From Campylobacterota bacterium (GTDB lineage: Bacteria > Campylobacterota > Campylobacteria > Campylobacterales > Sulfurimonadaceae), in contig JAYEMF010000005.1 of assembly GCA_034717975.1 (NCBI GenBank), positions 3,613 to 27,562 on the forward strand: DNA of 23,950 bases, given 5' to 3'. The notes beneath the pieces were generated by a model, which was given only the letters and a program-made list of their open reading frames with translations, had not been told where the DNA came from and ran no database searches. The position numbers and the translations under genes are program-made. Shown here piece by piece: positions 268 through 22,677 of the stretch (the first letter of the stretch is position 1; the number at the start of each line of letters is the position of its first letter).

Positions 268-657
268 ATGGAGCACGTTAATACAATGAACCCTTATTTT
301 GGGGTTTTTGTGCTGTTTGTACTGACATTTGGTGCATTTTATGCAACAACGGTAATTGCCCGTCTGGCGAGCCGTGCAATGGCAAGCAAAGATACGGAAA
401 AGCTGAAGCTGACGGTTTATGAATGTGGGCCGGAAGTAACGAAGCAGCCAAATAGAATTTCGACACAGTTTTACCTGTTCGCACTTCTTTTCCTGCTGTT
501 CGACGTTGAGATCGTCTTTATGTTCCCATGGGCGATTAATTTTAAACTTTTAGGCTGGTTTGGCTTTGTTGAGATGATGCTTTTCATCCTGCTGTTGGCA
601 ATCGGTTTTGTTTATGCTTGGAAAAAAGGAGCGCTTGAATGGCACAGCATCAAGTAG
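268..657 (+). CDS. nuoA: NADH-quinone oxidoreductase subunit A
   Basis: Three hydrophobic segments; YECG and FLLFDVE...FPWA motifs; WKKGALEW C-terminus; AAAAGG RBS at 255-260. Confidence 0.97.
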
Positions 658-1148
658 ATTATTTAAAAGATGGCGGCCTTCCGGTCGCTTTGACATCTAT
701 CGACAAATTGGCGAACTGGGGACGTTCAAACTCGCTTTGGGCTTTGACTTACGGTTTGGCATGCTGCGGTATCGAGATGATGGCCTCTGGTGCATCACGC
801 TATGACTTCGACCGTTTCGGTACGATCTTCCGTTCATCACCGCGTCAGGCTGACATTATGATCGTTGCGGGAACGCTGACTAAAAAGCATGCAGAGTTCA
901 TCCGACGACTGTATGATCAGATGACGGAACCTAAATGGGTCATCTCTATGGGCTCTTGCGCCAATACCGGCGGTATGTTCAACACATACGCCACAGTACA
1001 GGGTGTTGACCGTGTTATTCCGGTTGATCTTTACCTGCCTGGTTGTGCACCGCGTCCGGAAACGCTTCAGTATGCCGTGATGCTGCTGCAGAAAAAGATC
1101 CGTAGCGAAAAAGCGATCAAGTCGCAAAAACCAAAAAGGTTGATGTAG
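639..1148 (+). CDS. nuoB: NADH-quinone oxidoreductase subunit B (cluster N2)
   Basis: [22 protein letters not shown] and [13 protein letters not shown] motifs. Confidence 0.98.
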
Positions 1149-1963
1149 TGAGAGCGTATACAGAGAAGAAAGACGTACAGAAAAAAGCCTACTATACTGA
1201 CCGTTACTGGGTGGCTCCGCAGGTGCCTAAATCAGAAGTGGAAAGTGATGAAGTGTTCGCTGCAGACCTGGCGGCAATCAAAGCGAAGTTTGACGTCCTT
1301 GATGCTTACATCCAGGTAGAACAGATGGTCGTAATGATCAATCCGGAAGATAACTTCGGTGTCGTCGAAGTATTGAAGAATGAGTGTGACTATACGCAGC
1401 TTTCCGAGATGAGTGCGATTGACTGGATAGCAGACAAAGGTCAGCTTGAAGTCTTCTATCAACTGCTGAGTATGAACAAGCGTAAACGTATCCGTGTCAA
1501 ATGTTTTATTGACCAGGATCAGGCGGTTGAGAGTCTTAACCCGCTCTTCAGATCAGCAGACTGGGCAGAGCGTGAAGCTTATGATATGTTAGGCCTTAAG
1601 GTGAACAATCATCCATTCATGAAACGCATCCTGATGCCGGACGACTGGCAGGGGCATCCGCTGCTGAAAACTTACCCGCTTCATGGTGATGAGTTTGCTC
1701 AGTGGTATGAGGTTGACAAAATCTTTGGGAAAGAGGCACGCGATATCATCGGGCCTGAAAACCGTGATTCGGCTATGGTTGACCGTTACGACAGCGAGCG
1801 CTTTGGACGTCTTGGACATGAGGTCCCTCGCGGTGCAGAGCCTAAAGAGTCCAGAGGCCCGGTAGAAAATGTTTCACTTGATTACCAGGAAGAGGGCGGT
1901 ATCTTCCTGATCGAAGAGTTTGACAAAGATAACACAGTCGTGATCAGCGACAGAGACAGATAA
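1148..1963 (+). CDS. nuoC: NADH-quinone oxidoreductase subunit C
   Basis: [13 protein letters not shown]...HP...[18 protein letters not shown] motif; GTG start overlapping the nuoB stop; epsilon-type N- and C-terminal extensions. Confidence 0.96.
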
Positions 1964-1973
1964 GGACAGTTAT

Positions 1974-3200
1974 ATGCAACAAACCAATAGACTACGTCCA
2001 TTTTTTGAAAATATTACCTTTGATCGTGAAGATAATGAGCTGGTTCTGAACTTCGGTCCTCAGCACCCTTCTGCTCACGGTCAGCTGCGTCTTATGCTTC
2101 ACCTCCAGCAAGAGCAGATCGTTAAAGCGCATCCGGATGTCGGATACCTTCACCGTGGTATGGAGAAGATGGCAGAAAACATGATCTATAATGAGTTCAT
2201 GCCGACAACCGACCGTATGGATTACATCGCGTCAAGTTCTAACAACTACGGCTTTGCCCTGGCGGTTGAGAAACTGATCGGCCTGGAAGTTCCGCGTCGT
2301 GCGAAAGTCATCCGTATGCTGCTGCTTGAGACAAACCGTCTCATGTCACACCTATTCTGGTTGGCAACAACCGCACTCGATATCGGTGCGATGACGGTAT
2401 TCCTTTACGCATTCCGTGAACGTGAATACCTGATGGACCTTATCGAAGATTACTGTGGTGCACGTCTGACGCACTCGGCAGTCCGTATCGGTGGTGTTCC
2501 GCTTGATCTTCCGGATAACTTTATGGATGATCTGAAAAAGTTCCTGGACAAACTTCCGGAGAATATCAAAGATTATGAAGATCTGCTTGATACCAACCGT
2601 ATCTGGCGTATGCGTATGGAAGATGTCGGGGTGATACCGACCGAGATGGCTCTGAGTTGGGGCTGTACAGGTCCAATGCTACGTGCTTCAGGTGTCAAAT
2701 GGGATATCCGTAAAGAAGAGCCGTACGAACTGTATGACGAAGTCGACTTTGATGTCCCTTACTCTGACAAGTGTGACAACTACGCGCGTTATAAGGTCTA
2801 TATGATGGAGATGCGTGAGTCGGCGAAGATCCTTTATCAACTGATCCCGATGTATTATGAGACATCACCGGAACTGATGGCGCATGCGCCGAAATACATT
2901 TCGGCACCGAAAATCGATATCATGACGCAGAACTACTCGTTGATGCAGCACTTTGTACTGGTTACGCAGGGAATGCGTCCTCCGGTCGGTGAAGTCTATA
3001 TCCCGACTGAGTCGCCAAAAGGTGAACTCGGTTATTACATCAACTCTCAGGGCGGTCCATATCCGTACCGTCTTAAAATGCGTGCGCCATCATTCTGGCA
3101 CACGGGAATTTTGACAGACCTGCTTCCGGGTCACTATATCCCAGACGTCGTTGCGATCATTGGTACAACCAATATCGTATTCGGTGAAGTTGACAGATAG
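1974..3200 (+). CDS. nuoD: NADH-quinone oxidoreductase subunit D
   Basis: [36 protein letters not shown] and terminal GEVDR motifs. Confidence 0.98.
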
Positions 3201-3208
3201 GAGAGTGC

Positions 3209-3433
3209 ATGAAACGTTTTGATTTGCGTCATCTTAAAGATGAATTCTATGATCGTATGAATGAGATCATGAAGAGCGAAGTGGAATATGGCGAAGTGGC
3301 AATCTTCCTGTTTGAAGTCGGTGATTTTACATCGGTTCAAAAAAGTGCGGATGCTATCAAAGAGGGTGGACATGATCTGCTGAACTCTTTGAAATTCAAT
3401 GAGGTCGACTGGACCATTGTTGTTAAAAAATAA
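3209..3433 (+). CDS. nuoX: Epsilon-type complex I small subunit (NuoE replacement, NuoX; Cj1575c/HP1264-like)
   Basis: 74 aa, MKRFDLR...GEVAIFLFEVGDF...LLNSLKFNEVDWTIVVKK matches the Campylobacterota 'subunit E family' protein; no Cys; position after nuoD; AGGAG RBS. Confidence 0.88.
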   Translation: MKRFDLRHLKDEFYDRMNEIMKSEVEYGEVAIFLFEVGDFTSVQKSADAIKEGGHDLLNSLKFNEVDWTIVVKK

Positions 3434-3444
3434 GAGGATGATAC

Positions 3445-5439
3445 GTGAGTAAAGTCTATTTTTCCACTTGGCGAGGCGAGCAGATAAACAATATCGGCAA
3501 AGCTGAGGATGCGTGGGAAGAGTCTGCTTACAACCTGCCGGCACAGTACGACGATCACCGTGATTCCAAAGCCTTTATTGGCTGGGACGGTGTGGCACTG
3601 TTTAATCCGGATGTAGACGTGGTACGCCTTGCGACAGAGTATGCAGCGCAGTACCAGGTCTATTCGGAAGCATGTGGCCGTTGTGCACCGGGACGTTGGG
3701 GTGGAAGAATTCTCTACGATCTGCTGGATAAGATCGCGCGTGGCGAAGGAACATATGACGATGTCGCCCACCTGAAAGAGGTCTCAAAAAGTATGCAGCT
3801 TACCTCCAAGTGTGAGATTGGTAAAACAGTACCAAACCCGCTTTTGGACCTGATGGAGCATTTTGAGTCAGATTTCAATGCGTGTATTGATGAGCAGAAG
3901 CCTTCCAAGCATTATGATACAGAAGTTAACTATATTGCCAAGATCACAGCTCCATGTCAGGATGCCTGTCCGGCACATGTTGATATCCCGGGTTATATCG
4001 AAGGGGTACGAGATCTGCGTCTGGATGACTCGTTGAAGGCAACACGCCAGACAATGCCGCTGGCCCATGTCTGTGGCCGCGTCTGTCCGCATCCGTGTGA
4101 AGATGAGTGCCGTCGAAAGAACCTGGATGAGTCGATCTCTATTATGGAACTCAAGCGTCTGGGCGCCGACTACGAGACTGACCACGGTTTCGGATTCTTT
4201 CATCCGGCAAAACAGAAAAAGATGGGCGACAAACGTGTCGCTGTTATCGGTGCAGGGCCGGCAGGTCTGACTACGGCATATTATCTGGCACTTGAAGGTG
4301 TCAATGTAGATGTCTATGAAGAGCTTCCGGTTCTGGGTGGTGAAGTTGCCGTCGGTGTGCCGGAATACCGTATGCCGATCGACAAGTACAACCAGGATAT
4401 CGAAGCGGTTAAAGATCTGGGTGTCAACTTCATCGTTAACTCCAAAGTAACAGCTGAATTAATGCGGAAGTACGAAGAGGAGTATGACGCGGTGATGGTG
4501 GCAACCGGAACACGTATCTCCAAAAAAGTTCGTTGTAACAATGAACGTCCTGAGATCGAAGGGTACTGGAGCGCGATTGAGATGCTCGACCAGATCAATC
4601 TCTGGGAGAAATACGGCATTGGCGAACCAGTTGATTTGACTGGCAAGACAGTTGTCTGTGTAGGCGGCGGTTTTACCTCGATGGATGTCGTCCGCTGTTC
4701 GATCCGTGCCAATGCCGAGCGGGTTGTCATGATCTATCGTCGTGACGAGAAGACGATCATACGTAATACCACCTATGAAGAGTATCACGAAGCGGTAGAA
4801 GAGGGTGTTGAGTTTATTTTCCATTCAGCTGTCGAAGAGATGGTGGATGAAGATGATGTGCTCAAGGTACTTAAAATGAATATGTTTGAACTTGTTCCGG
4901 ACCCGGATGGCGGTCGTCCGCAGCTTGTGAAAATCGAAGATGGTGATTTTGAGATCGATGCCGATTTCCTTATCCCGGCTGTATCACAAAGTGCCGATCT
5001 CGACCTGCTCCCTGAAGAGTGGGAGATCGAGATGACATCATGGGCGACCATAAAGACCAACGGTAAAGATTATATGACTTCCCGAAAGGGTATCTTTGCT
5101 TCGGGTGACTGTGAATATGGTCCGATGACAATCGTCAATGCTGTCGGTCAGGCCAAACGAGCGGCTTCAGTGATCTCACGCTATATTGAAACCGGTGAGA
5201 TCACGCTGACAGACGATGAGATCATGGAAGATCACCTTCGCAAGATGCGTGTTTACGACAAGAAAGAGAAGGTAACCGGTTGGATGCCTGGCGTTCCTCG
5301 TGAAAAAAGTGAAGTAGTCGGTGTTGACGATCGTAAAGACAACAACGTTGAAGTCAACTATGGCTTTACCCAGGAACAGGCGATCAGCGAAGCTGAACGA
5401 TGCATGCGCTGTTACTACATTGCGATGGTCGCAAACTGA
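3445..5439 (+). CDS. FAD/NADPH-dependent Fe-S oxidoreductase, GltD/SfrB-like, with an N-terminal NuoF-type Fe-S helical domain
   Basis: GTG start after GAGG; EACGRCAPGR...KC (NuoF N3-like); PCQDACP and CGRVCPHPCEDEC (GltD-type clusters); VAVIGAGPAG (FAD); VGGGFTSMD...IYRR (NADPH); FASGD; C-terminal EAERCMRC. Confidence 0.9.
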   Translation: MSKVYFSTWRGEQINNIGKAEDAWEESAYNLPAQYDDHRDSKAFIGWDGVALFNPDVDVVRLATEYAAQYQVYSEACGRCAPGRWGGRILYDLLDKIARGEGTYDDVAHLKEVSKSMQLTSKCEIGKTVPNPLLDLMEHFESDFNACIDEQKPSKHYDTEVNYIAKITAPCQDACPAHVDIPGYIEGVRDLRLDDSLKATRQTMPLAHVCGRVCPHPCEDECRRKNLDESISIMELKRLGADYETDHGFGFFHPAKQKKMGDKRVAVIGAGPAGLTTAYYLALEGVNVDVYEELPVLGGEVAVGVPEYRMPIDKYNQDIEAVKDLGVNFIVNSKVTAELMRKYEEEYDAVMVATGTRISKKVRCNNERPEIEGYWSAIEMLDQINLWEKYGIGEPVDLTGKTVVCVGGGFTSMDVVRCSIRANAERVVMIYRRDEKTIIRNTTYEEYHEAVEEGVEFIFHSAVEEMVDEDDVLKVLKMNMFELVPDPDGGRPQLVKIEDGDFEIDADFLIPAVSQSADLDLLPEEWEIEMTSWATIKTNGKDYMTSRKGIFASGDCEYGPMTIVNAVGQAKRAASVISRYIETGEITLTDDEIMEDHLRKMRVYDKKEKVTGWMPGVPREKSEVVGVDDRKDNNVEVNYGFTQEQAISEAERCMRCYYIAMVAN

Positions 5440-5450
5440 TGGAGGCGAAA

Positions 5451-7685
5451 ATGAGTGAAGCAATCAATTTTACCATTGACGGCCGTCAGGTTCAGGCCGA
5501 GAAGGGTGAGTCTATCCTTCAGGTGGCGCGTCGTGAGGATATCTATATTCCAACGATGTGTTATCTTGCCAAGACGACACCGTCGGCATCATGCCGTATG
5601 TGTGTGGTTGAAGTCGAAGGTGTGGACGGATTCATCCTGAGCTGTAATACACCGCCGACCGAAGGGGCCACTGTTACAACCGATTCTGCTGAACTTTACA
5701 GCGAGCGCCAGAACATCATGAAGATGTACAATGTCAATCACCCGCTTCAGTGCGGTGTCTGTGACAAAAGCGGTGAGTGTGATTTGCAGAACAAGACACT
5801 TGATTTTGGTCTGGATGAGCAGAGTTTTGCCGTGGCTGACCAGAAACGTAAAAAGAAGAAGTGGGGTGTACTCAGTTACGATCCGCATCTCTGTATTATG
5901 TGTGAGAAGTGTACCTCTGTCTGTAATGAAGTAGTAGGTTCTGAAGCACTCTATATCCGTCCAGGCGGTTATAAATCAGAGATCGATAATCACTACAGCC
6001 AGTGTATTCAGTGCGGTGAGTGTATCTCAGTCTGTCCGGTCGGCGCCATGGCCAGCAGTGATTTCAAATACACTTCCAATGTCTGGGAACTTGAACCGGT
6101 TCCATCGGCATGTGCACACTGTAGCAGTGCCTGTAATCTTCTTTATGATGTTAAAGAGACAGGCATCGGCTTTATCGGTGAGAAGTCTATCTATCGTGTG
6201 ACTAACGAAGATGATCACGACTCGCTGTGCGGTGCCGGCCGTTTTGGTTATGACTACGACAACCGTGTAAACGAGAAAGATGTTACCGCATTTGAAAGCG
6301 CTGTCGAAGCGTTCAAAAAAGCGGATACTATTCGTTTTAATTCAATGATCAGTAATGAAGAAGCACTGCTACTGCAGCGTCTAAAAGAGAAACACGGGTA
6401 CAAACTTGTCAACAAAGAGGCAAAAGCGTATCAGAACTTTATGGATAACTTCGGTTCAACAAGTGGAAAGCAGCTCTACAGCAGCGATCTTAAAAAACTC
6501 AAAGCCTCTGATTATGCTATTACGCTTGGATCGTCAGTCTCTTCAGACAATCCTATGGTCCGTTTTGCTCTGAGTTCAGCGGTTAACCGTAGAAAAGCGT
6601 ATGTTGCCTGTATGCATCCTATTGAAGATGAGATGATCCGTAATATTGTTTCTCAATACGTGAAATATGAGGTTGGATCGGAAGAGGGTGTACTCGCCAT
6701 GCTTTGTGACTTCATTCTGAGTGATGAAGCCAAAGCAGAGAACAAAGCTTTCTTTGATGACCTGGATGTTGGTTATATAAGCGGTGAAAGCAGTGTCGGT
6801 GAGGAAGAGTTCGCTCAACTGGCACAGCGACTGGTTCGAAGAAAGAGTCCGGTTCTTGTTATCGGTGAAGATCTGATTAACCATGAACGTGCCGCAAATA
6901 TCGCAAAGATGGCCGGTTTGATCGAGCATAACAGTGATTTTTCTGTACTGGTCACACCACCGGCAACCAATACACTGGGTGTAAGCCTGATTTGTGATCT
7001 TGACAGTGAAGCCGGCAGTTATGCTGTCGGTTATAACGTCGAAGCAGATTTTGTACTCAGTGCACTTGGCAAAGGTGACCTGGATATGCCGGCGATGAAC
7101 CAGCAAGAGGGAACCTTGACCAGTATCGATAAAAAAGTAGTACCGATGAATGCGGCACTCCCTTATCATGGTTATGAACTTAACGACATCGCTTCGGCAC
7201 TGGATGTTTCCAGCGAATATGTTATCGATTATACGAAAGAGCTGCCGACAGATAAAGGCTATCGTGCCATACCGTTTGATGAACTTCCAAACCGCTATTC
7301 CAATGTGGGTGAAGCGGTACGTGGTTATGCTCTGGAAAATGGGGATGTGACGATTTCCGGTCAACTTGACGCGCTTGGTGATATCCGTGAGTTTAACGGA
7401 AGTGTCATCTATCGCTGCAATCCACTGTCACAGTTTAATCCGTTTACAGATAAAGCACATCAAATTATCGATGAGCCTCTACTGATCGGGTCAGAGCAGT
7501 TTGCAATCGCTGCAAAGATCCAAGGTGGCGAACAAGTGGCTTTTGACATTGATGGCCAGCGAATTGAGCGTCTATTTAAGGTTGATAGAAAACTCAAAGG
7601 AACCGTTGCGTTTAATCCTGCGTTTGACAGCAGTGAAAACTATGACAGTTACCGATACAATCAAGTTAAGATAGAGAGGGTCTAA
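5451..7685 (+). CDS. nuoG: NADH-quinone oxidoreductase subunit G, paralogue 1 (compact form)
   Basis: Start reassigned to ATG 5451 (GGAGG at 5441-5445). IPTMCY..SCRMC..C [2Fe-2S]; HPLQCGVCDKSGECDLQ (N5); CIMCEKCTSVC and CIQCGECISVCP; CAHCSSAC...LCGAGRFG (N7); molybdopterin-oxidoreductase-like C-terminal body. Confidence 0.93.
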   Translation: MSEAINFTIDGRQVQAEKGESILQVARREDIYIPTMCYLAKTTPSASCRMCVVEVEGVDGFILSCNTPPTEGATVTTDSAELYSERQNIMKMYNVNHPLQCGVCDKSGECDLQNKTLDFGLDEQSFAVADQKRKKKKWGVLSYDPHLCIMCEKCTSVCNEVVGSEALYIRPGGYKSEIDNHYSQCIQCGECISVCPVGAMASSDFKYTSNVWELEPVPSACAHCSSACNLLYDVKETGIGFIGEKSIYRVTNEDDHDSLCGAGRFGYDYDNRVNEKDVTAFESAVEAFKKADTIRFNSMISNEEALLLQRLKEKHGYKLVNKEAKAYQNFMDNFGSTSGKQLYSSDLKKLKASDYAITLGSSVSSDNPMVRFALSSAVNRRKAYVACMHPIEDEMIRNIVSQYVKYEVGSEEGVLAMLCDFILSDEAKAENKAFFDDLDVGYISGESSVGEEEFAQLAQRLVRRKSPVLVIGEDLINHERAANIAKMAGLIEHNSDFSVLVTPPATNTLGVSLICDLDSEAGSYAVGYNVEADFVLSALGKGDLDMPAMNQQEGTLTSIDKKVVPMNAALPYHGYELNDIASALDVSSEYVIDYTKELPTDKGYRAIPFDELPNRYSNVGEAVRGYALENGDVTISGQLDALGDIREFNGSVIYRCNPLSQFNPFTDKAHQIIDEPLLIGSEQFAIAAKIQGGEQVAFDIDGQRIERLFKVDRKLKGTVAFNPAFDSSENYDSYRYNQVKIERV

Positions 7686-10174
7686 TGGGAAACGAAATTA
7701 CGATTACCATTGACGGTAAAGAGGTCAAGACACAAGAGGGTGAGTTTATTCTCAATGCCGCTCGTGGCGATGGCATCTTTATACCGGCAATTTGTTACCT
7801 GACACGATGTAGTCCTACGTTGGCTTGTCGTATCTGTCTCGTCGAAGCCGATGGCAAACAGGTCTATGCCTGTAATGCCAAGGCAAAAGACGGGATGAAT
7901 ATTACGACGACGACGGAAAATATTGAGAGTGAACGTCGTGCGATCATGGAAGTTTACGATGTAAACCACCCGCTGCAGTGTGGTGTTTGTGACCAGTCCG
8001 GCGAGTGTGAGCTTCAAAACTATACCCTTGAGCTGGGTGTAGACTCACAAAGTTATGCGATCGCTGATGTTGAACGACCTGTCAAAGATTGGGGACACCT
8101 TCACTATGATGCGGGTCTCTGTATCGTTTGTGAACGCTGTACAACTGTCTGTAAAGATATGATAGGTGACAACTCGCTTAAGACTGTTCCGCGTGGCGCA
8201 GGTGCTATTGATGCTGACTTTAAAGAGAGCATGCCGAAAGATGCCTATGCGATGTGGAACAAGCTCAACAAATCAGTCATCGGACTTACCAGCGGTGAGG
8301 AGATGCTTGATTGTACAAGTTGTGGCGAGTGTGCGGCTGTCTGTCCGGTCGGCGCCCTGGTAGATACGAATTATGTTTACACGACCAATGCATGGGAGAC
8401 AAAACAGATCCCTGCAACCTGCGGTCACTGTAGCGCCGGTTGTCAGATCTCTTATGATGTCAAACATGAGAGCATTGAAAATCCGGAAGAGAAGATCTAC
8501 CGTGTGACCAATGAGTGGAACTACGTATCACTCTGCGGTGCCGGGCGCTACGGATATGACTATCAAAATGCGAATGTGACAAAAGATGAATCAGCGTTCA
8601 ATGCAGCGATCGAAGCATTCAAAAAAGCCGATACCATCAACTTTACATCAAGCATCACCAATGAAGAGGCCTTGATCCTTCAAAAGCTTAAAGAGCAACA
8701 TGGGTATAAGCTGGTTAATGATGAAGCCCGTGCATTTAAGACATTTATGCATGATTATGCCGATATCAGCCGCACATCGCTTTATGGTTCGGATCTTGAG
8801 AAAGTACACAATACTGATTTTGTCGTCTCTGTCGGTACAGCGCTAAAATCAGATAATCCGAATGCACGTTATGCCTTTAACAATGCGGTACAGATGAAAG
8901 GTGCAGGACTCTATTTCCACCCAATGGGCGATCCGGTCATTGAGGGCCTGAGCAAAAATGTGATGAGCATCAAACATGCACCGCTTCAGGAAGAAGCAGT
9001 GCTTTACCTGATGCTTGATCTCTTTGGCGATAAAGAAGCAATGCCTGAAGAGGTGACAAGTTATCTGGCAGGTTTTCACTCTACCAAAACCATCACGGTT
9101 CAAGAGACGATCAAAGAGAAAGTCGTTGAAAAAGTGATGGTCACCAAGGTCAATGAAGAGACCGGTGAAGAGGAAGAGGTCGAAGAAGAGAAGACCAAAA
9201 TGGTTCCGAAAAAAGTCTCCAAAGAGATTGAAGTAGACGATAACAGACTGCTTGAGATCATTGGTGCGGGCGATAATTTCATGGAAGGGCTCGAGAAACT
9301 TCTGAAGAAGAAAGAGTCGTTCGCCATGATGGTTGGAGCAGATCTTTATACGCACCAAAATTCGCGTAACCTTGCCCGTCTTGTCGCTTTGATCGAAAAA
9401 TATTCGGCATTTGAGCTGGTTATGATTCCATCATTTACAAACACATTGGGTGTAGGCCTGATCTGTGATCTCGATGAGAGTGCAGGTGAGTATGCAGTCG
9501 GTTATAACACTGCAGGTGACTTTCTTCTTTCGGCATTAGGCGAGGGTGATCTTGATATGCCGGCGATCAATCAGCAAGAGGGGACATTGACAAGCATCAA
9601 CAAGCGTGTCAATCCGACCAATGTAGCGATCGGTTATGGCGGTTATGTGCTAAACGATATTGCCAATGCACTTGGACTGAATGCCGAGTACACGATTGAC
9701 TATACGGAGCAGTTACCGACAAATCGCGGTTTTAAAGCCGAGAAGTTCGATGACCTTCCAAATCACTACACTAATGATGGTGTCGAGGTTCGCGGTTACC
9801 TGCTGGGTAGCACTCCGGTCAGAACGAAAAAAGATGAGAGCGTCGAAGCGTTTGACGAAGCCCTGAAACTTGAAGGTGAACTGGTTTACCTTGCCAATCC
9901 GGTTCGTCAGTTTACACCATTTACGAGTAAACCACATCAGCTTGATGAAGTCTTTGGTCTCTATATGAGTGAAGAGGCTCTGAGTGAAAGCGAGATGAAT
10001 GAGGGTGACCGTGTCAAGGTGAAAACTGATAGTGGTGAAGTTGAACTTGATATTGTCAGTGACAACAAGATCTCAGGCAAGATCTGCTGTCTGCCGACAT
10101 TTGACAATAAAATCAATACGGAAGCACTGTTCAGCGGTTACCGCTTTGCAACAGCTTCAATTCAAAAGGTGTAA
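7685..10174 (+). CDS. nuoG: NADH-quinone oxidoreductase subunit G, paralogue 2 (canonical Campylobacterota form with insertions)
   Basis: IPAICY..ACRIC..C; HPLQCGVCDQSGECELQ; CIVCERCTTVC and CTSCGECAAVCP; CGHCSAGC...LCGAGRYG; TAATG coupling to the preceding gene; directly precedes nuoH. Confidence 0.95.
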   Translation: MGNEITITIDGKEVKTQEGEFILNAARGDGIFIPAICYLTRCSPTLACRICLVEADGKQVYACNAKAKDGMNITTTTENIESERRAIMEVYDVNHPLQCGVCDQSGECELQNYTLELGVDSQSYAIADVERPVKDWGHLHYDAGLCIVCERCTTVCKDMIGDNSLKTVPRGAGAIDADFKESMPKDAYAMWNKLNKSVIGLTSGEEMLDCTSCGECAAVCPVGALVDTNYVYTTNAWETKQIPATCGHCSAGCQISYDVKHESIENPEEKIYRVTNEWNYVSLCGAGRYGYDYQNANVTKDESAFNAAIEAFKKADTINFTSSITNEEALILQKLKEQHGYKLVNDEARAFKTFMHDYADISRTSLYGSDLEKVHNTDFVVSVGTALKSDNPNARYAFNNAVQMKGAGLYFHPMGDPVIEGLSKNVMSIKHAPLQEEAVLYLMLDLFGDKEAMPEEVTSYLAGFHSTKTITVQETIKEKVVEKVMVTKVNEETGEEEEVEEEKTKMVPKKVSKEIEVDDNRLLEIIGAGDNFMEGLEKLLKKKESFAMMVGADLYTHQNSRNLARLVALIEKYSAFELVMIPSFTNTLGVGLICDLDESAGEYAVGYNTAGDFLLSALGEGDLDMPAINQQEGTLTSINKRVNPTNVAIGYGGYVLNDIANALGLNAEYTIDYTEQLPTNRGFKAEKFDDLPNHYTNDGVEVRGYLLGSTPVRTKKDESVEAFDEALKLEGELVYLANPVRQFTPFTSKPHQLDEVFGLYMSEEALSESEMNEGDRVKVKTDSGEVELDIVSDNKISGKICCLPTFDNKINTEALFSGYRFATASIQKV

Positions 10175-10177
10175 TAG

Positions 10178-11167
10178 ATGGATATAGCATATTTAATCGA
10201 AACGATTGTCAAGATCGTAGTAATCTTGCTTGTATTTTCTGCGCTTGCCGGATTCGGTACGTACTTTGAGCGTAAAGTACTGGCATTTATGCAGCGACGT
10301 CTCGGACCAATGCACGTTGGTCCATACGGTTTGCTTCAGATCGCGGCCGATGGTATCAAACTCTTTACCAAAGAGGATATCGTTCCGCAGAATGTTGTAG
10401 CACCGATCTTTAAGATCGCTCCGGTCATTACCGCAGCTACAGCATTTATGGCGGCAGCAGCTATTCCGTTTATGCCTAGCTTTACGATCGGTGATTACAC
10501 GGTCTCTCCGATTGTCGCTGATATCAATGTAGGTATCCTGTATATCCTCGGTATCATGGGAATCGGCCTTTACGGTCCGCTCCTTGGCGGTATGGCATCG
10601 GCCAATAAATGGTCACTGATCTCTGCAGCGCGTGCCGCATCGGTCTTTATCTCTTACGAGGTAGTTACCGGTCTTTCACTGCTGGCACCGTTGATGATGG
10701 TCGGTTCATTGTCACTGATCGACTTTAACAACTATCAGACTGGCGGCATCGGTTCATGGATCGTCTGGTCACAGCCGGTTGCATTTGTACTCTTCGTGAT
10801 TGCAGCATTTGCTGAAACGGGTCGTACTCCGTTCCACCTTATTGCCAATGACCACGAGATTATCGATGGTTTCGGTACGGAGTATTCAGGGATGCGTTGG
10901 GGTCTCTTTTTCATTGGTGAGTACGCCAATATGTTCTTTATCTCGTTCGTGATCGCACTGATCTTCCTGGGCGGATTTGGTGATGGTACAGCCTTGGGTG
11001 CTTTGGCACTTCTGGGTAAAGTAGCATTTATTTTCTTCTTCTTTCTCTGGACACGTGCAGCATGGCCGGATGTCCGACCGGATCAACTGATGTGGTTGTG
11101 TTGGAAGGTGCTTATGCCAATCGCAGTGATCAACATTATTGTCACTGGTATTGTGATGATGTTTTAA
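10178..11167 (+). CDS. nuoH: NADH-quinone oxidoreductase subunit H
   Basis: ERKVLAFMQRRLGP..VGPYGLLQ..ADGIKL..KE, ISYE, TEYSG and RPDQLM motifs; about 8 hydrophobic segments. Confidence 0.97.
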   Translation: MDIAYLIETIVKIVVILLVFSALAGFGTYFERKVLAFMQRRLGPMHVGPYGLLQIAADGIKLFTKEDIVPQNVVAPIFKIAPVITAATAFMAAAAIPFMPSFTIGDYTVSPIVADINVGILYILGIMGIGLYGPLLGGMASANKWSLISAARAASVFISYEVVTGLSLLAPLMMVGSLSLIDFNNYQTGGIGSWIVWSQPVAFVLFVIAAFAETGRTPFHLIANDHEIIDGFGTEYSGMRWGLFFIGEYANMFFISFVIALIFLGGFGDGTALGALALLGKVAFIFFFFLWTRAAWPDVRPDQLMWLCWKVLMPIAVINIIVTGIVMMF

Positions 11168-11176
11168 AGGTGAATG

Positions 11177-11794
11177 ATGAGTCTAGAACAATTTAAACAT
11201 AGAGACGTAGGTGAAGATGGCTACTACATGGTAGACATCGAGGACTATCCAACCACATGGTGGGGCAAGTTCACACGTGTTGTCGATCGTACGTTCAAAG
11301 GCGAGCTTTTCGTTGGTCTTTGGGTCGTTTTACGTGAGATGATCAAGTTTGATATTCACACAGTACAGTATCCGAAAGAGAAGTTGCCGATCGGACCACG
11401 TTATCGTGCCGTTCATAAGATGCTGCGCCTGTTCGAATCTGGAACGGAACGCTGCATCGGTTGTGGCCTTTGTGAAAAGATCTGTGTCGCTGACTGTATC
11501 CGAATGGACACACGTGTTGACGAAGAGAGTCGTAAAGAGGTGACAGAGTACAGCATCAATCTTGGTCGCTGTATCTTCTGTGGTTACTGTGCAGAAGTGT
11601 GTCCTGAACTGGCGATCGTTCATGGCGGACGCTACGAGAATGCGTCTGAGCAGCGTGCACACTTCGTTGAGTTCGAAGATATGTTGACACCGATCGATAT
11701 GCTGACATCAGGTCAGCAACAAGAATACCCTGGCTTTGGTGCCGTTATCCCAGGAAGTGACAAGAGCGTTAAGAAAACGCCTCTTGCCTATTAA
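11177..11794 (+). CDS. nuoI: NADH-quinone oxidoreductase subunit I
   Basis: TVQYP, ERCIGCGLCEKIC and RCIFCGYCAEVCPELAI (two [4Fe-4S] motifs). ATGATG at 11174/11177; the second ATG is better spaced from AAAGG. Confidence 0.97.
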   Translation: MSLEQFKHRDVGEDGYYMVDIEDYPTTWWGKFTRVVDRTFKGELFVGLWVVLREMIKFDIHTVQYPKEKLPIGPRYRAVHKMLRLFESGTERCIGCGLCEKICVADCIRMDTRVDEESRKEVTEYSINLGRCIFCGYCAEVCPELAIVHGGRYENASEQRAHFVEFEDMLTPIDMLTSGQQQEYPGFGAVIPGSDKSVKKTPLAY

Positions 11795-11803
11795 GGAGTT
11801 ATG

Positions 11804-12379
11804 ATGTTTGAAGCAATTGCTTTTTATCTGTTTGCGATCTTGACGGTAGTGATGTTCTCTATTACCGTTATGACATCACAGGCACTTTATGCACTGACAG
11901 CGATGGCTGCCGGGATGATCTTTATCTCTGCATTCTTCTTTATCTTAGGGGCAGAATTTCTGGGTGCTGTTCAGATCGTTGTCTACTCCGGAGCAGTTTT
12001 GGCACTTTACGCATTCGGGATGATGTTCTTCGATACGACACGAGATGTCAAAGAGAAAAATCCATCTAATTTGTTGGTGTTTGGAATGGGCGGTTTGGCT
12101 GCACTGATGGTCGTTGTGATCTTCATGGCACCGATCGTTTCCGAAAACATCACAGCTGTCTATCCGGTGATGGAAGATGCCGGAAACGCTCAGCAGATCG
12201 GTATGGTGCTCTTTACTAAATACCTGGTTCCGTTTGAAGTAGCCGCCGTTATGCTGCTGGTCGCGATGATCGCAGGTATTGTACTTGCCGGTAAGAAGAT
12301 GGATCGCTCTTTGACTCAGATGGAAGAAGAGGAGATCGAGCTTATGGAGCTAGAGTCTCACAGAAAGGCTGTCTTATGA
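11804..12379 (+). CDS. nuoJ: NADH-quinone oxidoreductase subunit J
   Basis: AEFLGAVQIVVYSGAV and LFTKYLVPFEVAAVMLLVAMIAGI motifs. Start is 11801 or 11804 (AAGGAG at 11793-11798 favours 11804). Confidence 0.96.
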   Translation: MFEAIAFYLFAILTVVMFSITVMTSQALYALTAMAAGMIFISAFFFILGAEFLGAVQIVVYSGAVLALYAFGMMFFDTTRDVKEKNPSNLLVFGMGGLAALMVVVIFMAPIVSENITAVYPVMEDAGNAQQIGMVLFTKYLVPFEVAAVMLLVAMIAGIVLAGKKMDRSLTQMEEEEIELMELESHRKAVL

Positions 12380-12684
12380 TGGAAATCGGACTTAATCACT
12401 ACCTGGTCTTGTCGACACTGCTTTTTGCGATCGGTCTGATCGGTGTAATGCGTCGTAAAAATCTACTGATGCTCTTCTTTGCAACAGAGATTCTGCTAAA
12501 TGCCGTGAACGTTGCTTTTGCCGCGATCTCACACTATTATGGTGACCTGACGGGGCAGATGTTCGCTTTCTTCGTGATCGCGATCGCTGCTTCGGAAGTT
12601 GCTGTTGGTCTTGGTCTTCTGGTCGTTTGGTTCAAACGTACCGGTAAGATCGACCTTGATATGATGACAACGATGCGAGGATAA
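12376..12684 (+). CDS. nuoK: NADH-quinone oxidoreductase subunit K
   Basis: RRKNLL...EILLNA and AASEVAVGL motifs; three TM helices; ATGA overlap with nuoJ. Confidence 0.97.
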   Translation: MMEIGLNHYLVLSTLLFAIGLIGVMRRKNLLMLFFATEILLNAVNVAFAAISHYYGDLTGQMFAFFVIAIAASEVAVGLGLLVVWFKRTGKIDLDMMTTMRG

Positions 12685-12689
12685 GACAT

Positions 12690-14573
12690 ATGGAACTCTA
12701 TTTATATATTGCACTCTTTGCACCGTTAACAGGTTCTCTGTTCGCTGCACTTTTTGGTGCGAAGCCTAAAACAATGATCGCCGGACTGGTCCCATCGGGT
12801 CTGCTCTTTGCCTCATTTGTGGCAAGTTCTATTTTACTTGTGCACATTCTGGGCGGTGGCCAGCCGGTTCATGTCGAGATGATGACATGGATGGCAACCG
12901 GTGATCTTTATATCCCATTCGGGTTTGTAGTCGATCAGGTTTCTGTAACGATGATGATGGTTGTGACGATCGTTTCTACGGTCGTACATGTCTACTCTAT
13001 CGGTTACATGGATCATGACAAAGCGTTCAACCGTTTCTTCGCCTGGCTTTCAGCCTTTGTGTTCTCGATGATGGTACTGGTAATGAGTGATAACTTCGCC
13101 GGCCTCTTCATCGGTTGGGAAGGTGTCGGTCTCTGTTCATGGGCACTGATTGGTTTCTGGTATCACAAAGAGTCGGCGACCTGGGCGGCAAACGAAGCAT
13201 TTATAATGAACCGTATCGCTGACCTTGGAATGCTTATCGGTATCTTCCTGATCTACTGGAACACTGGTTCACTGCAGTATGATCAGGCCTTTGCCGCGCT
13301 TCCTGCTTTGGAGATGGATGTGATCGTTTGGATCGGAATCTTCCTGTTTGTCGGTGCAATGGGTAAATCGGCACAGTTTCCGCTACACACATGGCTTGCC
13401 GATGCGATGGAGGGTCCGACGCCTGTTTCGGCTCTGATCCACGCAGCAACGATGGTAACGGCCGGTGTTTATCTTGTAGTCCGTGCCAACCCGGTTTATG
13501 ACCTTATCCCTGAAGTGGGCGTCTTTATCGCAAGTCTCGGTGCATTCGTTGCAATGTTTGCTGCGACAATGGCACTGGTTAACCGTGATATGAAACGTAT
13601 TATTGCCTACTCAACACTTTCACAGCTTGGTTATATGTTTGTGGCTGCAGGACTGGGAGCTTACTGGGTGGCACTGTTCCACCTGATGGCACACGCATTC
13701 TTTAAAGCACTGCTCTTCCTGGGTGCAGGTAATGTTATGCACGCAATGCATGATGAGCTTGATCCGTTCAAAATGGGTGGATTGAAGCGAGCGATGAAGT
13801 GGACGTGGATCATGATGACATTGGCATCTGTTGCACTCGCAGGTATCTGGCCACTGGCTGGTTTTTTCTCGAAAGACCTGATCCTGGAAGTCGCATTTGT
13901 GACACATCATCCGATTCTTTACACGGTACTGTTACTGACAGCCGGTTTAACAGCATTCTACTCATTCCGTCTTGTAGCACTGATCTTTCATGGCGAAGAG
14001 CGCTATAAAGAGCATGGCATCCATCCGCATGAAGCGTATAACTATATGCTGATCGCGATGAGCCCGCTGGCTCTACTTGCGGTAATCGCAGGGTTTGGAT
14101 TCAAAGGTGATTATGTGGCGATGGTAACACAACTGCTTCCGGCTACGGAGTATCATGTACACTCTCCGGTAACGTTCTGGATCATGATAATCGGTACACA
14201 GCTTTTTGTCGGTGCCGCGATCGCATTCGCATACTCGAAGTACACTAAAAAAGGCTTCAGCAAGAAGTGGGAAGAGCGTTTTTGTTACAAACTGCTGTTC
14301 AATCAGTACTTCATACCAAAAATCTATGAAGAGATCTTTATTAAGCCGTATCGTGAGCTTTCAACGATCTTCTGGAAACAGATCGATCTGAAAGTGGTGG
14401 ATGCTACGGTTGACTTTATAGGAAATACATTTTATAAAACCGCTGAGGCAACTCATGGTATGCAAAACGGTAACCTTTCAACGATGCTTCGTTGGATGGT
14501 AGCTGGTACAGTGATCTTGCTGTTACTCGCTGTTGCGTTCACCATCGGTTACTCTGCGGTAGTAGGAGCTTAG
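12690..14573 (+). CDS. nuoL: NADH-quinone oxidoreductase subunit L
   Basis: GWEGVGLCS, NRIAD, GKSAQFPLHTWLADAMEGPTPVSALIHAATMVTAG and HAFFKALLFL motifs. Confidence 0.98.
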   Translation: MELYLYIALFAPLTGSLFAALFGAKPKTMIAGLVPSGLLFASFVASSILLVHILGGGQPVHVEMMTWMATGDLYIPFGFVVDQVSVTMMMVVTIVSTVVHVYSIGYMDHDKAFNRFFAWLSAFVFSMMVLVMSDNFAGLFIGWEGVGLCSWALIGFWYHKESATWAANEAFIMNRIADLGMLIGIFLIYWNTGSLQYDQAFAALPALEMDVIVWIGIFLFVGAMGKSAQFPLHTWLADAMEGPTPVSALIHAATMVTAGVYLVVRANPVYDLIPEVGVFIASLGAFVAMFAATMALVNRDMKRIIAYSTLSQLGYMFVAAGLGAYWVALFHLMAHAFFKALLFLGAGNVMHAMHDELDPFKMGGLKRAMKWTWIMMTLASVALAGIWPLAGFFSKDLILEVAFVTHHPILYTVLLLTAGLTAFYSFRLVALIFHGEERYKEHGIHPHEAYNYMLIAMSPLALLAVIAGFGFKGDYVAMVTQLLPATEYHVHSPVTFWIMIIGTQLFVGAAIAFAYSKYTKKGFSKKWEERFCYKLLFNQYFIPKIYEEIFIKPYRELSTIFWKQIDLKVVDATVDFIGNTFYKTAEATHGMQNGNLSTMLRWMVAGTVILLLLAVAFTIGYSAVVGA

Positions 14574-16118
14574 ATGTTAGATAATATTTTATCGATTCTC
14601 ATTTTCTTCCCGGCATTGGCAGCAATGCTTGGGTTTGTTGTTCATAAAGATAGCATCCGCGCCTACGGTATTACAGTAGCTGCTATTGAGTTCGTGCTTT
14701 CTCTTGTATTGTGGTACTCGTATGACCCGTCTGTATCAGGAATGCAGTTTATGGAGTCACTGCCGCTCATTCCGGCATTTGGTATCAGTTACCTGCTGGG
14801 TGTTGACGGTATTTCGCTCTTTATTATTGTCCTTTCGGCTTTCATTACCTTGATCGGTATAGCATCATTGACGGAAACACGTCGTGTCAAAGATATGATC
14901 TTGACACTGCTTTTCCTTGAAATGACAATGATCGGTGTATTTGCAGCGCTTGATGCCATCGTTTTCTATGTGTTCTGGGAACTCTCTCTTGTACCGATGC
15001 TTTACCTTATTGGTGCATGGGGTGGACCGCTGCGTATCTATGCATCGGTCAAGTTCTTCCTCTATACCTTTACCGGTTCACTGGTAATGCTGGTCGGTAT
15101 GCTCTTTATGGCATATTTCTATTACCAGGCAACAGGACAATGGAGTTTCTCGATCCTGGAGTGGTATCGTCTGATCCTTCCTGAGAATTTCCAGATCTGG
15201 CTCTTTGTCGCATTCTTCTTCGGATTTGCGATCAAAGTTCCGATGTTCCCGTTCCATACCTGGCTTCCGTATGCACACGGTCAGGCACCGACGATCGGTT
15301 CGGTTATCCTTGCCGCCGTCTTGCTGAAAATGGGTACGTATGCTTTTGTACGTTTTTCTCTGCCGCTCTTCCCGGATGCTTCCGTCTTCTTTATGATGCC
15401 GATCGCAGTACTTGCGATCATCATGATCGTCTATACAGCGATGGTGGCTTATGCCCAGGAAGATATCAAGCAGGTCGTTGCCTACAGCTCGGTCTCGCAT
15501 ATGGGGGTTATCATACTGGGTACCTTTGCCCTAAACGTTGAAGGTATTACAGGTTCAGTGTTCCTGATGATCGCACACGGTGTTGTCTCCGGTGCGCTCT
15601 TCCTTCTCGTCGGCGTGATCTATGAACGCCGACATACGAAGCTCATGAGCGAGTTTGGCGGTCTGGCATCGGTCATGCCGCATTACGCCACTATTTTCGG
15701 TGTGATGATGATGGCCTCTGTCGGTCTTCCGTTGACGATCAACTTCGTTGGTGAGTTCTTGAGCCTGCTTGGTTTCTACAAGCAGTCGCATATGATGACG
15801 CTGCTTGCCGGAACGGCAATTATCGTTGGTGCTATCTATATGCTTGCAGCGTATAAAAAAGCATTCTTTGGCGAGGTGACAAAAGAGGAGAATAAAAATC
15901 TTCCGGATGTCAACAAAAAAGAGCTTGTAGCGCTTATACCACTGACAATCATTACTATCTGGCTGGGTGTCTACCCTAAACCGGTTCTGGAGCCGATCAA
16001 TAACTCGGTAGAATCCATCGTACAGTTGATGCACGATAAAGCGATCACAGAAGAGGCAAAGATGCGTATCCCGAATCTTTCCGAAGAGGTCGCAATCACT
16101 AAAGAGGAGGCAAAATAA
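14574..16118 (+). CDS. nuoM: NADH-quinone oxidoreductase subunit M
   Basis: [45 protein letters not shown] and NFVGE motifs. Confidence 0.98.
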
Positions 16119-21816: not shown

Positions 21817-22677
21817 TTGGAACGTGTGATCGGTAAGCTAAAAGACTTTAATGAACTGGTGATGTTCCAGCACTCTATCTTCTCTCTCCCATTTATTTTC
21901 ATTGCGATGATCGTTGCAGCTGATGGCTGGTTTGGCTGGACGCTGCTGGTTCTGGGTGTTCTGGCCGCGGTAACAGCCCGCAACTTTGCCATGGGACTCA
22001 ATCGTTATGCGGATCGTGCCTATGATGCCCAAAATCCGCGTACTGCTTCTCGTCCGAGTGTAGACGGCAGGCTTGACGGAAGTGCCATTATGCTCTTTAC
22101 ACTGGTCAATGCCGCTGTCTTTATTATAGTCGCCTATATGATCAACGATCTCGCCTTCTGGCTCAGTTTTCCTATTCTGGCTGTTTTGGGAAGCTACTCC
22201 TACTTCAAACGTTTCAGCGCCATGGCCCACATCGTTTTGGGTGTCTCTCTGGGTCTGGCACCGATTGCCGGGGTTGTCGCTGTCGAAGCAGCTATACCTC
22301 TCTGGTCGCTGCTGCTCAGTGCCGGGGTGATCTTTTGGGTAGCGGGTTTTGATCTGCTCTATTCGCTTCAGGATATTGATTATGATCAATCTGTGGGACT
22401 CCATTCGATCCCTTCACGTTACGGTGCGGAAGCGACTCTCTTTATCGCATCGATTTTTCATGCAGTGACCGTACTCTTCTGGGCCTTCTTTGTCGGATGC
22501 GCTTCACTGGGTCTCTTTGCCTGGCTGGCGGTGATTATTGCCGCGGTGATGCTTACCTATGAGCACCAGTTGGTACGCAAGGATTTTACAAAGATTGACA
22601 GGGCATTCTTTACTGTTAACGGATATCTGGGTGTCATCTTTTTAGTCATGATCATTGCCGACAGGATAGCAGCATGA
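21817..22677 (+). CDS. mqnP: UbiA-family menaquinone (futalosine pathway) prenyltransferase
   Basis: HSIFSLPF, NRYADRAYDAQNPRTASRP, YSYFKRF, FWVAGFDLLYSLQD and AFFTVNG motifs; TTG start. Confidence 0.9.
   Translation: MERVIGKLKDFNELVMFQHSIFSLPFIFIAMIVAADGWFGWTLLVLGVLAAVTARNFAMGLNRYADRAYDAQNPRTASRPSVDGRLDGSAIMLFTLVNAAVFIIVAYMINDLAFWLSFPILAVLGSYSYFKRFSAMAHIVLGVSLGLAPIAGVVAVEAAIPLWSLLLSAGVIFWVAGFDLLYSLQDIDYDQSVGLHSIPSRYGAEATLFIASIFHAVTVLFWAFFVGCASLGLFAWLAVIIAAVMLTYEHQLVRKDFTKIDRAFFTVNGYLGVIFLVMIIADRIAA

Follow-up and report, generated by a model that had tools for sequence, protein, structure and literature searches.

Complex I of Campylobacter jejuni and Helicobacter pylori, referred to below as the NuoXY type, was reported to use flavodoxin, not NADH (PMC4178425, PMC6682613), and NuoY (Cj1574c) was reported to mediate the transfer of electrons from flavodoxin to complex I of C. 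jejuni (PMC4178425; here and below, statements from this source, PMC6682613, PMC3543383 and PMC11829005 refer to the accessible parts of the texts). A different composition was described for Sulfurimonas denitrificans in a preprint of 2019 (bioRxiv 10.1101/717884). In the accessible part of its text, Suden_1824 is an NfnB-like replacement of NuoF, a short and a long NuoG are both expressed, Sulfurimonas and Sulfurovum share this conserved composition, the proton-motive force is proposed to drive the reduction of NAD(P)+ and ferredoxin (reverse electron flow), and Weerakoon and Olson 2008 are credited with first noting the arrangement. Here we analyze such a complex I operon in a stretch of 23,950 nt from a Sulfurimonadaceae genome of 2.52 Mb that is 99.9% complete (positions 3,613 to 27,562 of contig JAYEMF010000005.1, C5:3613-27562); this stretch is called the window throughout. 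A sequence-only reading of this DNA had proposed an NADP(H)-coupled complex I with a rebuilt input arm, and its claim to novelty does not stand, given that the accessible part of the preprint already contains this arrangement, together with a hypothesis that is essentially identical. The arrangement is real, conserved, biologically important, and already described. To this, the homology of NuoY and NuoG1, the Lys-type cluster, and the insert of NuoG2 reported below are modest additions; beyond what the preprint is known to state, from the part accessible, are the NuoF tail with three of four cysteines, the lysine of the Bfu type, the NuoY-NuoG1 homology, and the second, canonical operon together with PntB. 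No later experimental work or biochemical test of the arrangement was found in the literature searched.

The window carries, on the + strand, one unbroken complex I operon with the gene order nuoABCD–nuoX–flavoprotein–nuoG1–nuoG2–nuoH-N. Between nuoD and nuoH lie, as claimed in the sequence-only reading, nuoX (3209-3433, + strand, in the nuoE slot, encoding a cysteine-free protein of 74 amino acids, aa), a gene for a 664 aa FAD/NADPH Fe-S flavoprotein (3445-5439, + strand, in the nuoF slot, with a GTG start), and two intact nuoG genes, namely, the short nuoG1 (5451-7685, + strand, 744 aa from the ATG at 5451) and the long nuoG2 (7685-10174, + strand, 829 aa). The junctions bear out the tight spacing with ribosome-binding sites or translational coupling that had also been claimed. 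The TAG of nuoD is separated from the ATG of nuoX by 8 nt including GGAGAG, and the TAA of nuoX from the GTG of the flavoprotein gene by 11 nt including AGAGGA; the TGA of the flavoprotein gene overlaps an ATG at 5439, nuoG1 and nuoG2 overlap in TAATG, and only 3 nt separate nuoG2 from nuoH. The open reading frame (ORF) of nuoG1 is open from 5400, and the ATG at 5451, which sits 5 nt after GGAGG, is the likely start (744 aa) over the alternative ATG at 5439 (748 aa).

No Pfam match to NuoE (PF01257) or to the FMN domain of NuoF (PF01512) was found anywhere in the window. Thus, the absence of nuoE and nuoF noted from the sequence holds for the window, but not for the genome, in which a second nuo operon on another contig includes both genes. 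Similarly, no separate nuoY gene is present, as had been noted, but NuoG1 is a full-length homologue of NuoY. NuoX matches PF16514 (E 1e-40) and the PDB entry 2lxr_A (E 2e-25), has neither a cysteine nor a cluster, and shows 54-76% identity across 31 orthologues from operons of both the flavoprotein type and the NuoY type. A NuoX of 194 aa, including an Ala/Glu/Lys-rich C-terminal tail of 120 aa, was observed in one f4 genome (L097:7533-8117).

To assess the distribution of this gene set, 401 evenly drawn Campylobacterota genomes, all at least 90% complete, were searched, and a full flavoprotein orthologue was defined by a best E value of at most 1e-170. NuoX is present in 337 of the 401 genomes and the flavoprotein in 93; the other 68 matches of the flavoprotein search are weak and fall on GltD paralogues. 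By family (handles f1 to f14), the flavoprotein occurs in 34/34 genomes of f1, the Sulfurimonadaceae, plus the genome of the window, and in 19/20 genomes of f4, 8/8 of f8, 4/4 of f12, 3/3 of f6, 2/2 each of f9 and f10, and 1/1 each of f13 and f14. It is found in 3/23 genomes of f7 and 15/118 of f2, and in none of f3 (0/158), f5 (0/7), and f11 (0/19). Altogether, 98 flavoprotein loci were examined. In 82 of these, two NuoG genes of at least 600 aa are followed by nuoH, 15 loci are cut by a contig end, and in one NuoG2 is distributed over two ORFs; none of the 98 loci pairs the flavoprotein with only one NuoG. All 95 flavoprotein loci that reach nuoD contain NuoX. The synteny survey that had been suggested as a check thus confirmed the co-occurrence of the flavoprotein with a second nuoG, and the conservation of the order across 98 loci indicates that the layout is not a product of chance. 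The divided NuoG2 (L081:12181-14551; two overlapping ORFs of 309 and 537 aa) is from a complete, single-contig f2 genome and may be truly split or result from a frameshift or an error in sequencing.

The relationship between NuoG1 and NuoY was analyzed using ten operons with nuoX and without the flavoprotein (from f2, f3, f7, and f11), and then five more operons from Campylobacteraceae. The gene after nuoX in the ten operons, that is, in the NuoY slot, encodes 231-339 aa, and its best BLASTP match is NuoG1 in 10/10 cases; the five further NuoY from Campylobacteraceae match NuoG1, and none of them matches NuoG2 at E 1e-5. Altogether, 15 of 15 NuoY match NuoG1 best or solely by BLASTP. An hhalign comparison of NuoY with NuoG1 yielded E 8.1e-60 at 37% identity, covering residues ~333-507 and ~637-748 of NuoG1, as opposed to E 2.8e-26 at 21% identity for NuoG2. 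Along the window, the NuoY profile detects a first NuoY-like segment of nuoG1 at 6462..6956 (+ strand; 147.8 bits, E 3.6e-43) and a second one, the C-terminal barrel, at 7344..7682 (+ strand; 65.7 bits, E 4.9e-18). No stand-alone NuoY was found with this profile in the window or in the 99.9% complete genome, where it detects NuoG1, besides a weak match of 28 bits to NuoG2. Pfam has no family for NuoY, and the NCBIfam model PRK08493 picks up 10/10 NuoY, under its cut-off. Because of this profile and BLAST homology, NuoG1 can be considered to fill the NuoY slot. Judged by these comparisons, the NuoY proteins of Campylobacter and Helicobacter are shortened homologues of NuoG1, and, conversely, NuoG1 is a NuoY with the Fe-S third and a middle segment still attached. 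No statement that NuoY is a NuoG homologue was found in the literature searched, although the idea may still be published.

Since NuoG2, the outgroup paralogue, is full length, the common ancestor of NuoG1 and NuoY would have been full length as well, and NuoY would have arisen by loss. The two NuoY trees, both quick ones with long NuoY branches, differ on how often this took place: in the whole-length tree NuoY forms one clade (support 96), whereas in the tree of the C-terminal half NuoY is split by family, each beside the NuoG1 of its own family. A single NuoY clade is not rejected by the AU test (p 0.33). A complex prediction for NuoX with residues 330-748 of NuoG1, both given as alignments, had a score of 0.00; it provided no verdict and was not used either way.

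The flavoprotein contains three Pfam domains, PF10589, the C-terminal Fe-S region of NuoF (aa 73-146, E 7e-20), PF14691 (Fer4_20, aa 168-247), and PF07992 (aa 264-570). It scores 382.5 bits against NCBIfam PRK12771, under the cut-off of 516, and its top PDB matches are the Bfu-type NfnA (9bov_A, E 7.5e-79, and 9n5u_A) and NfnSL (4ylf_B). Conservation was assessed with 24 orthologues from ten families, with identities of 50-82%. The NuoF-tail domain (aa 24-163; 3514..3933, + strand) matches the C-terminal regions of HydB, NfnB, and NuoF in the PDB. In its N3-like site, three of the four N3 cysteines (C77, C80, and C123) are kept, and Gly83 takes the place of the third, so that the motif is CGRCAPGR, compared with CGQCTPCR in the NuoF of the same genome; all four positions are invariant in 24/24 orthologues. 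Neither an FMN/NADH-binding domain (PF01512) nor a four-cysteine N3 site, the features of a canonical NuoF, was found in the flavoprotein. In two f2 genomes (L083:8012-10795, - strand, and L084:6885-9773, + strand) the flavoprotein is 927-962 aa long, and a low-complexity insert of about 260-300 aa separates the NuoF tail from the NfnL-like module. Apparently, a long linker between the two domains is tolerated. In the same loci, NuoG1 (813-1046 aa) and NuoG2 (933-1012 aa) are enlarged too.

The NfnL/GltD-like module (aa 168-582; 3946..5190, + strand) was defined by alignments to 9bov_A, 4ylf_B, 9n5u_A, 8oh5_C, and 5jca_L. It includes two [4Fe-4S] motifs formed by C171, C175, C210, C214, C218, and C222, plus K237, the FAD motif GAGPAGL, and an NADPH motif with Y431-R432-R433 (YRR); the FAD motif, YRR, and all GltD-type cluster ligands are strictly conserved in 24/24 orthologues. 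In the column of K237, lysine is present in all three Bfu-type chains (9bov_A, 9n5u_A, and 8oh5_C), and glutamate, which we take to be a cluster ligand, in both NfnSL chains (4ylf_B and 5jca_L). C175, C214, C218, and K237, again invariant in 24/24 orthologues, align with C108, C147, C151, and K170 of NfnA from Caldicellulosiruptor (Csac), in which this lysine ligates cluster A7 (Cys3Lys; PMC11829005). In NfnABC, the FAD of the NfnL-like domain is reported to end a plain wire into the NuoG-like domain and not to be the bifurcating site (PMC11829005), and the YRR residues bind the phosphate of NADP(H) in T. maritima NfnB, as cited in the accessible part of bioRxiv 10.1101/717884. On the strength of these alignments, the flavoprotein consists of a NuoF tail and, joined to it, an NADPH/FAD module that matches the non-bifurcating Bfu NfnA type, with a Cys3Lys cluster. 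The C-terminal extension (aa 585-664; 5197..5439, + strand) aligns only with Bfu-type NfnA/StnC chains, up to a CxxC. The flavoprotein ends with RCMRCYY (C653 and C656), 8 residues ahead of the stop, a tail that is invariant in 24/24 orthologues. In NfnA and StnC, the chain runs on from the position of this CxxC into an Fe-S domain, and for this reason a frameshift or read-through that fuses the flavoprotein to NuoG1 was considered. It was rejected, given that all 24 orthologues stop at the same tail and that nuoG1 has its own ribosome-binding site and ATG.

The two NuoG proteins of the window are about 45% identical in a pairwise alignment. Against NCBIfam PRK08493 (epsilon NuoG; cut-off 591), NuoG2 scores 1162.7 bits over its full length and NuoG1 892.2 bits. 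The ligands of N1b, N5, N4, and N7 and of a second ferredoxin-type cluster are kept in both proteins; NuoG1 thus has a full N-terminal Fe-S region, and its N1b, N5, and N4 ligands are invariant in 22 orthologues. In a tree, 31 NuoG2/NuoG sequences form one clade with a support of 100, that is, NuoG2 is the orthologue of the single NuoG of NuoXY-type operons. NuoG1 lacks two stretches of NuoG2, of 28 aa and about 70 aa. The former, a basic/aromatic insert (aa 182-209; 8228..8311, + strand) that aligns with a gap in NuoG1, divides the 2x[4Fe-4S] ferredoxin-like domain into its two halves and lies beside the extra cluster. The insert is present in 31/31 NuoG2/NuoG, NuoXY-type operons included, and absent from 22/22 NuoG1; K180, K185, W191, and K196 of NuoG2 are invariant, and so are the cysteines of the extra cluster (31/31). 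The likeliest role of the insert and the extra cluster would be that of a candidate docking site for the acidic carriers flavodoxin and ferredoxin. The two NuoG1 that have lost the cysteines of the second ferredoxin-type cluster (L094:7566-9818 and L097:10014-12386) keep N4; the cluster is dispensable in NuoG1 but invariant in NuoG2. In one further genome (G054, locus L093), the C-terminal halves of NuoG1 and NuoG2 pair together in the tree with a support of 98, which hints at gene conversion between the paralogues.

The canonical nuo operon of the same genome is complete and located on contig 67 (C67, L002 634-13764, minus strand), with nuoA, nuoB, nuoCD (fused, 579 aa), nuoE, nuoF, nuoG (short, 463 aa), and nuoH-N. 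An MqnC-like radical SAM gene adjoins it, and ATP-citrate lyase (C67:3392-3919) is only a few kb away. Of the 41 Sulfurimonadaceae genomes sampled for a NuoF domain, 14 have one, compared with the flavoprotein operon in 34/34 genomes of the family among the 401, so that the canonical complex I appears to be accessory and the complex encoded in the window the constant one. An input module supplied by a nuoY/nuoEF located elsewhere had been named as an observation that would speak against an NADP(H)-coupled enzyme. Genes for nuoE and nuoF are indeed present, yet they belong to a separate nuoA-N operon that is itself complete, and the possibility that they supply the input module of the complex in the window was rejected as the likeliest reading.

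The genome of the window also encodes ATP-citrate lyase and PntB, the beta subunit of the proton-translocating transhydrogenase (C37:4034-5398, E 6e-198); a search of the same genome yielded no match to the Rnf marker and only a weak match (27 bits) to Flavodoxin_1. Autotrophs that run the tricarboxylic acid cycle in reverse (rTCA cycle) need reduced ferredoxin. The flavoprotein and ATP-citrate lyase were cross-tabulated by hand across the 401 genomes, a table that describes the sample, in which relatives are not independent: 74 genomes with the flavoprotein have a strong ATP-citrate lyase match and 19 do not, and among genomes without the flavoprotein the numbers are 15 and 293, respectively. 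In f7, the flavoprotein and a strong match to ATP-citrate lyase are confined to the same three genomes. The link of the flavoprotein module to autotrophy is not strict.

From these genes, domains, motifs, patterns of conservation, and homologies, we infer the physical attachment, the order of the wiring, the substrate, and the direction of the enzyme as follows. With somewhat better than even confidence, we lean towards a 'long-headed' complex I of Campylobacterota, encoded in one operon and most likely a single membrane enzyme, in which an NADP(H) module is mounted on a core of the flavodoxin/ferredoxin type. The core would consist of NuoA-D, NuoX, NuoG2, and NuoH-N and correspond to the complex I that Campylobacter and Helicobacter are known to have, which is of the flavodoxin/ferredoxin type. 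NADPH would bind at the FAD of the flavoprotein, and electrons would leave singly via its two [4Fe-4S] clusters, one of the Cys3Lys type, enter the Fe-S chain of NuoG1, perhaps with the degenerate N3-like site of the NuoF tail as an intermediate, and then pass through NuoG2, NuoI, and NuoB to menaquinone. The extra cluster of NuoG2 with the invariant basic insert would be a likely port for ferredoxin or flavodoxin. As the C-terminal half of NuoG1 is the full-length counterpart of NuoY, NuoG1 probably docks at the place that NuoY takes in the short-headed enzyme. The midpoint potentials of NADP+/NADPH (about -320 mV) and menaquinone (about -74 mV) imply that NADPH:menaquinone electron transfer yields about 47 kJ per electron pair. 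At a normal proton-motive force, this amount does not suffice for four protons, so that the reaction with menaquinone would be close to equilibrium and should be readily reversible. For an rTCA autotroph that oxidizes sulfur compounds at the quinone/cytochrome level, reverse operation is the obvious use, and the enzyme probably runs in this direction here, with the proton-motive force pushing electrons from menaquinol to NADP+ and perhaps to ferredoxin.

An NADP(H)-coupled complex I, as originally proposed, is supported in silico by the NfnL/GltD-type FAD/NADPH module, YRR in 24/24 orthologues, the NuoF docking tail, the conserved coupled operon, and the presence of ATP-citrate lyase. Its variant with two interchangeable heads gains some support from the basic insert by the extra cluster of NuoG2 (31/31, compared with 0/22 NuoG1). 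Several observations weigh against the long-headed enzyme. The canonical NuoEF-containing complex I and PntB could make NADPH without the flavoprotein module, which weakens the argument from necessity and shifts the interest to ferredoxin. Among the 19 of 93 flavoprotein-containing genomes without an ATP-citrate lyase match, 15 belong to f2, and the 15 genomes with ATP-citrate lyase but without the flavoprotein comprise seven of f5, seven of f11, and one of f4. The extra-cluster cysteines are gone from 2/22 NuoG1. The N3-like site has only three of four cysteines, and in Bfu enzymes sites of three cysteines and one other residue turned out to hold Zn (PMC11829005), so that the NuoF tail may have a structural role alone, which makes the proposed wiring uncertain. 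Among the solved structures in the PDB, those most closely related to the flavoprotein are soluble enzymes, and no biochemical or structural datum on any member was found in the literature searched.

In an alternative that we regard as rather unlikely, the flavoprotein and NuoG1 would make up a soluble enzyme of their own, an NADPH:ferredoxin/flavodoxin oxidoreductase like SfrAB or Nfn, which is merely co-transcribed with a flavodoxin/ferredoxin-dependent complex I (the NuoX-NuoG2 core) and exchanges electrons with it through a diffusible carrier. The nearest solved relatives, NfnABC, StnABC, and NfnSL, are indeed soluble, SfrB-like NADPH subunits are reported to partner hydrogenase or NuoG-like proteins (PMC3543383), NuoG1 owns a full Fe-S set, and contact of the flavoprotein and NuoG1 with the core is only predicted. 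However, the C-terminal half of NuoG1 lives on as NuoY in the same slot in 15/15 NuoXY-type operons, and NuoY is counted among the components of complex I in C. jejuni (PMC4178425). Furthermore, the flavoprotein keeps the NuoF docking tail, and in every complete locus the genes occupy the interval from nuoD to nuoH, with stop codons that overlap start codons. Another alternative invokes electron bifurcation or confurcation, either from NADPH to menaquinone as the high-potential and ferredoxin as the low-potential acceptor, by the logic of FixABCX, or from menaquinol, with the proton-motive force, to NAD(P)+ and ferredoxin in a fixed 1:2 ratio. The latter version is the proposal published in bioRxiv 10.1101/717884, as far as its accessible text goes, and the two-branched architecture with two NuoG chains and two candidate ports, the ferredoxin demand of rTCA autotrophs, and the lack of an Rnf marker match in the genome of the window would fit it. 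We nevertheless judge it improbable: the surroundings of the FAD follow the Bfu NfnA type, in which the residue is Lys and the FAD does not bifurcate, as opposed to the Glu of NfnSL, no second flavin domain or PF01512 match was found in the operon, and NuoX has no cluster.

It appears equally improbable that NADP(H) is not what the flavoprotein module handles in vivo, or that the module lies off the main path, for instance, with NADH or another donor or as a regulatory or overflow branch, with NuoG1 being chiefly structural. Although such a role would be compatible with the degenerate N3-like site, the loss of the extra cluster in 2/22 NuoG1, the dead-end Fe-S side branches reported for the homologous NfnA (PMC11829005), and the lineages of the NuoXY type that manage entirely without the module, it is hard to reconcile with the strict conservation of FAD motif, YRR, and GltD-type cluster ligands in 24 orthologues from 10 families at 50-82% identity and with the invariant N1b, N5, and N4 ligands of NuoG1. 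Finally, the long-headed enzyme might be a three-port redox hub connecting ferredoxin/flavodoxin, NADP(H), and menaquinone, with the NuoXY enzyme as a cut-down descendant that keeps only the NuoY anchor, an extended version that we hold possible but doubtful. The ferredoxin/flavodoxin port would be the insert and extra cluster of NuoG2, kept in all Campylobacterota, the NADP(H) port would consist of the flavoprotein and the Fe-S third of NuoG1, anchored by the NuoY-like half of NuoG1, and the membrane arm would provide the menaquinone port. In such a hub, the proton-motive force could drive electrons from menaquinol to both NADP+ and ferredoxin, and exchange between ferredoxin and NADP+ could bypass the membrane arm.

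The remaining genes of the operon, all on the + strand, are those of a regular complex I. The region 268..3200 comprises nuoA (268-657), which encodes the first membrane subunit, and the Q-module genes nuoB (639-1148), nuoC (1148-1963), and nuoD (1974-3200); it matches PF00507, PF01058, PF00329, and PF00346, and the NCBIfam models PRK08489, PRK08491, and TIGR01962 over their cut-offs. Downstream of nuoG2 follow nuoH (10178-11167), nuoI (11174-11794), nuoJ (11801-12379), nuoK (12376-12684), nuoL (12690-14573), nuoM (14574-16118), and nuoN (16118-17623), each identified by Pfam and by NCBIfam equivalog models over their cut-offs. A gene for a 785 aa DUF7494/TPR protein with a TTG start (17653-20010, + strand) begins 30 nt past nuoN. 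The gene mqnP, for the menaquinone prenyltransferase of the futalosine pathway (21817-22677, + strand; NF041585, 459 bits), is located 4 kb 3' of the operon, in agreement with menaquinone as the quinone. It is followed by an ORF of 171 aa without a Pfam or NCBIfam match (22674-23189, + strand), which is flanked on the other side by a DUF2802-like gene.

Sulfur- and hydrogen-oxidizing Campylobacterota are the dominant dark carbon fixers of sulfidic waters and vents. The operon, which is present in every Sulfurimonadaceae genome of the sample, is the published candidate for the supply of the reduced ferredoxin and NADPH that their rTCA cycle requires. If the enzyme were shown to couple the menaquinone pool to NADP(H) and ferredoxin, this would answer how these reductants are made and extend the complex I family by a new input module. 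In addition, the homology of NuoY and NuoG1 connects this enzyme with the complex I of Campylobacter and Helicobacter, which is essential and drug-relevant, and provides a structural hypothesis for the nature of NuoY.

Compared with the canonical N-module NuoE-NuoF-NuoG, such as that on contig 67, the operon of the window uses the same slots and keeps the C-terminal domain of NuoF and the N1b, N5, N4, and N7 motifs, whereas the FMN/NADH domain and N1a are missing, the third N3 cysteine is replaced by Gly, and NuoG is duplicated. SfrAB of Geobacter, compared here by its description only, likewise pairs a GltD-type NADPH flavoprotein with a NuoG/Fdh-like Fe-S protein (PMC3543383), but it is soluble and encoded outside a nuo operon. 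The large subunit of NfnSL (NfnAB) from T. maritima and P. furiosus (4YLF, 5JCA) is homologous to aa 168-585 of the flavoprotein (E 3.7e-72 with the whole protein; 238.7 bits with the module alone) and shares the FAD, YRR, and the two [4Fe-4S] clusters. It differs by Glu instead of Lys in the K237 column, by two residues in the CPxxCE motif, and by the lack of the NuoF tail and of the C-terminal extension, and no gene for an NfnS-like partner was found in the operon of the window by Pfam. Closer are the Bfu-type enzymes NfnABC and StnABC (9BOV/9BP5, 9N5U, 8OH5), which share the NfnL-like FAD/NADPH domain with the Cys3Lys cluster that feeds a NuoG/Fdh-like Fe-S chain, the NuoF-type four-helix bundle with a cluster, and the C-terminal extension up to the CxxC. 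The module of the window is encoded in a membrane complex I operon, whereas these enzymes are soluble, and their NfnL domain is inserted within the NuoG-like subunit; moreover, their bifurcation site is formed by a full NuoF-like FMN subunit and a NuoE-like [2Fe-2S] subunit, whereas the window lacks an FMN domain and its NuoX is cluster-free.

The complexes of C. jejuni (Cj1575c/Cj1574c) and H. pylori (HP1264/HP1265) have a NuoX that is 58-70% identical to that of the window and a single NuoG orthologous to NuoG2, and, as in the window, NuoE and NuoF are absent. The differences are the separate short nuoY after nuoX, which lacks the Fe-S N-terminal third and the middle ~130 residues of NuoG1, and the absence of the flavoprotein. 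Owing to these two differences, the form of the window is larger by about 1,100 residues and by up to 8 cofactor sites. The closest described system is the complex I of S. denitrificans, which belongs to the same family, the window being from another genus. As far as the accessible text of bioRxiv 10.1101/717884 shows, the gene order is the same (Suden_1824, flavoprotein; Suden_1823, short NuoG; Suden_1822, long NuoG), an NfnB-like protein with YRR occupies the NuoF slot as in the window, and the short NuoG lacks the same stretches, of ~30 aa in the ferredoxin-like domain and of ~70 acidic aa. With flavoprotein orthologues 77-87% identical, there is no essential difference between the two.

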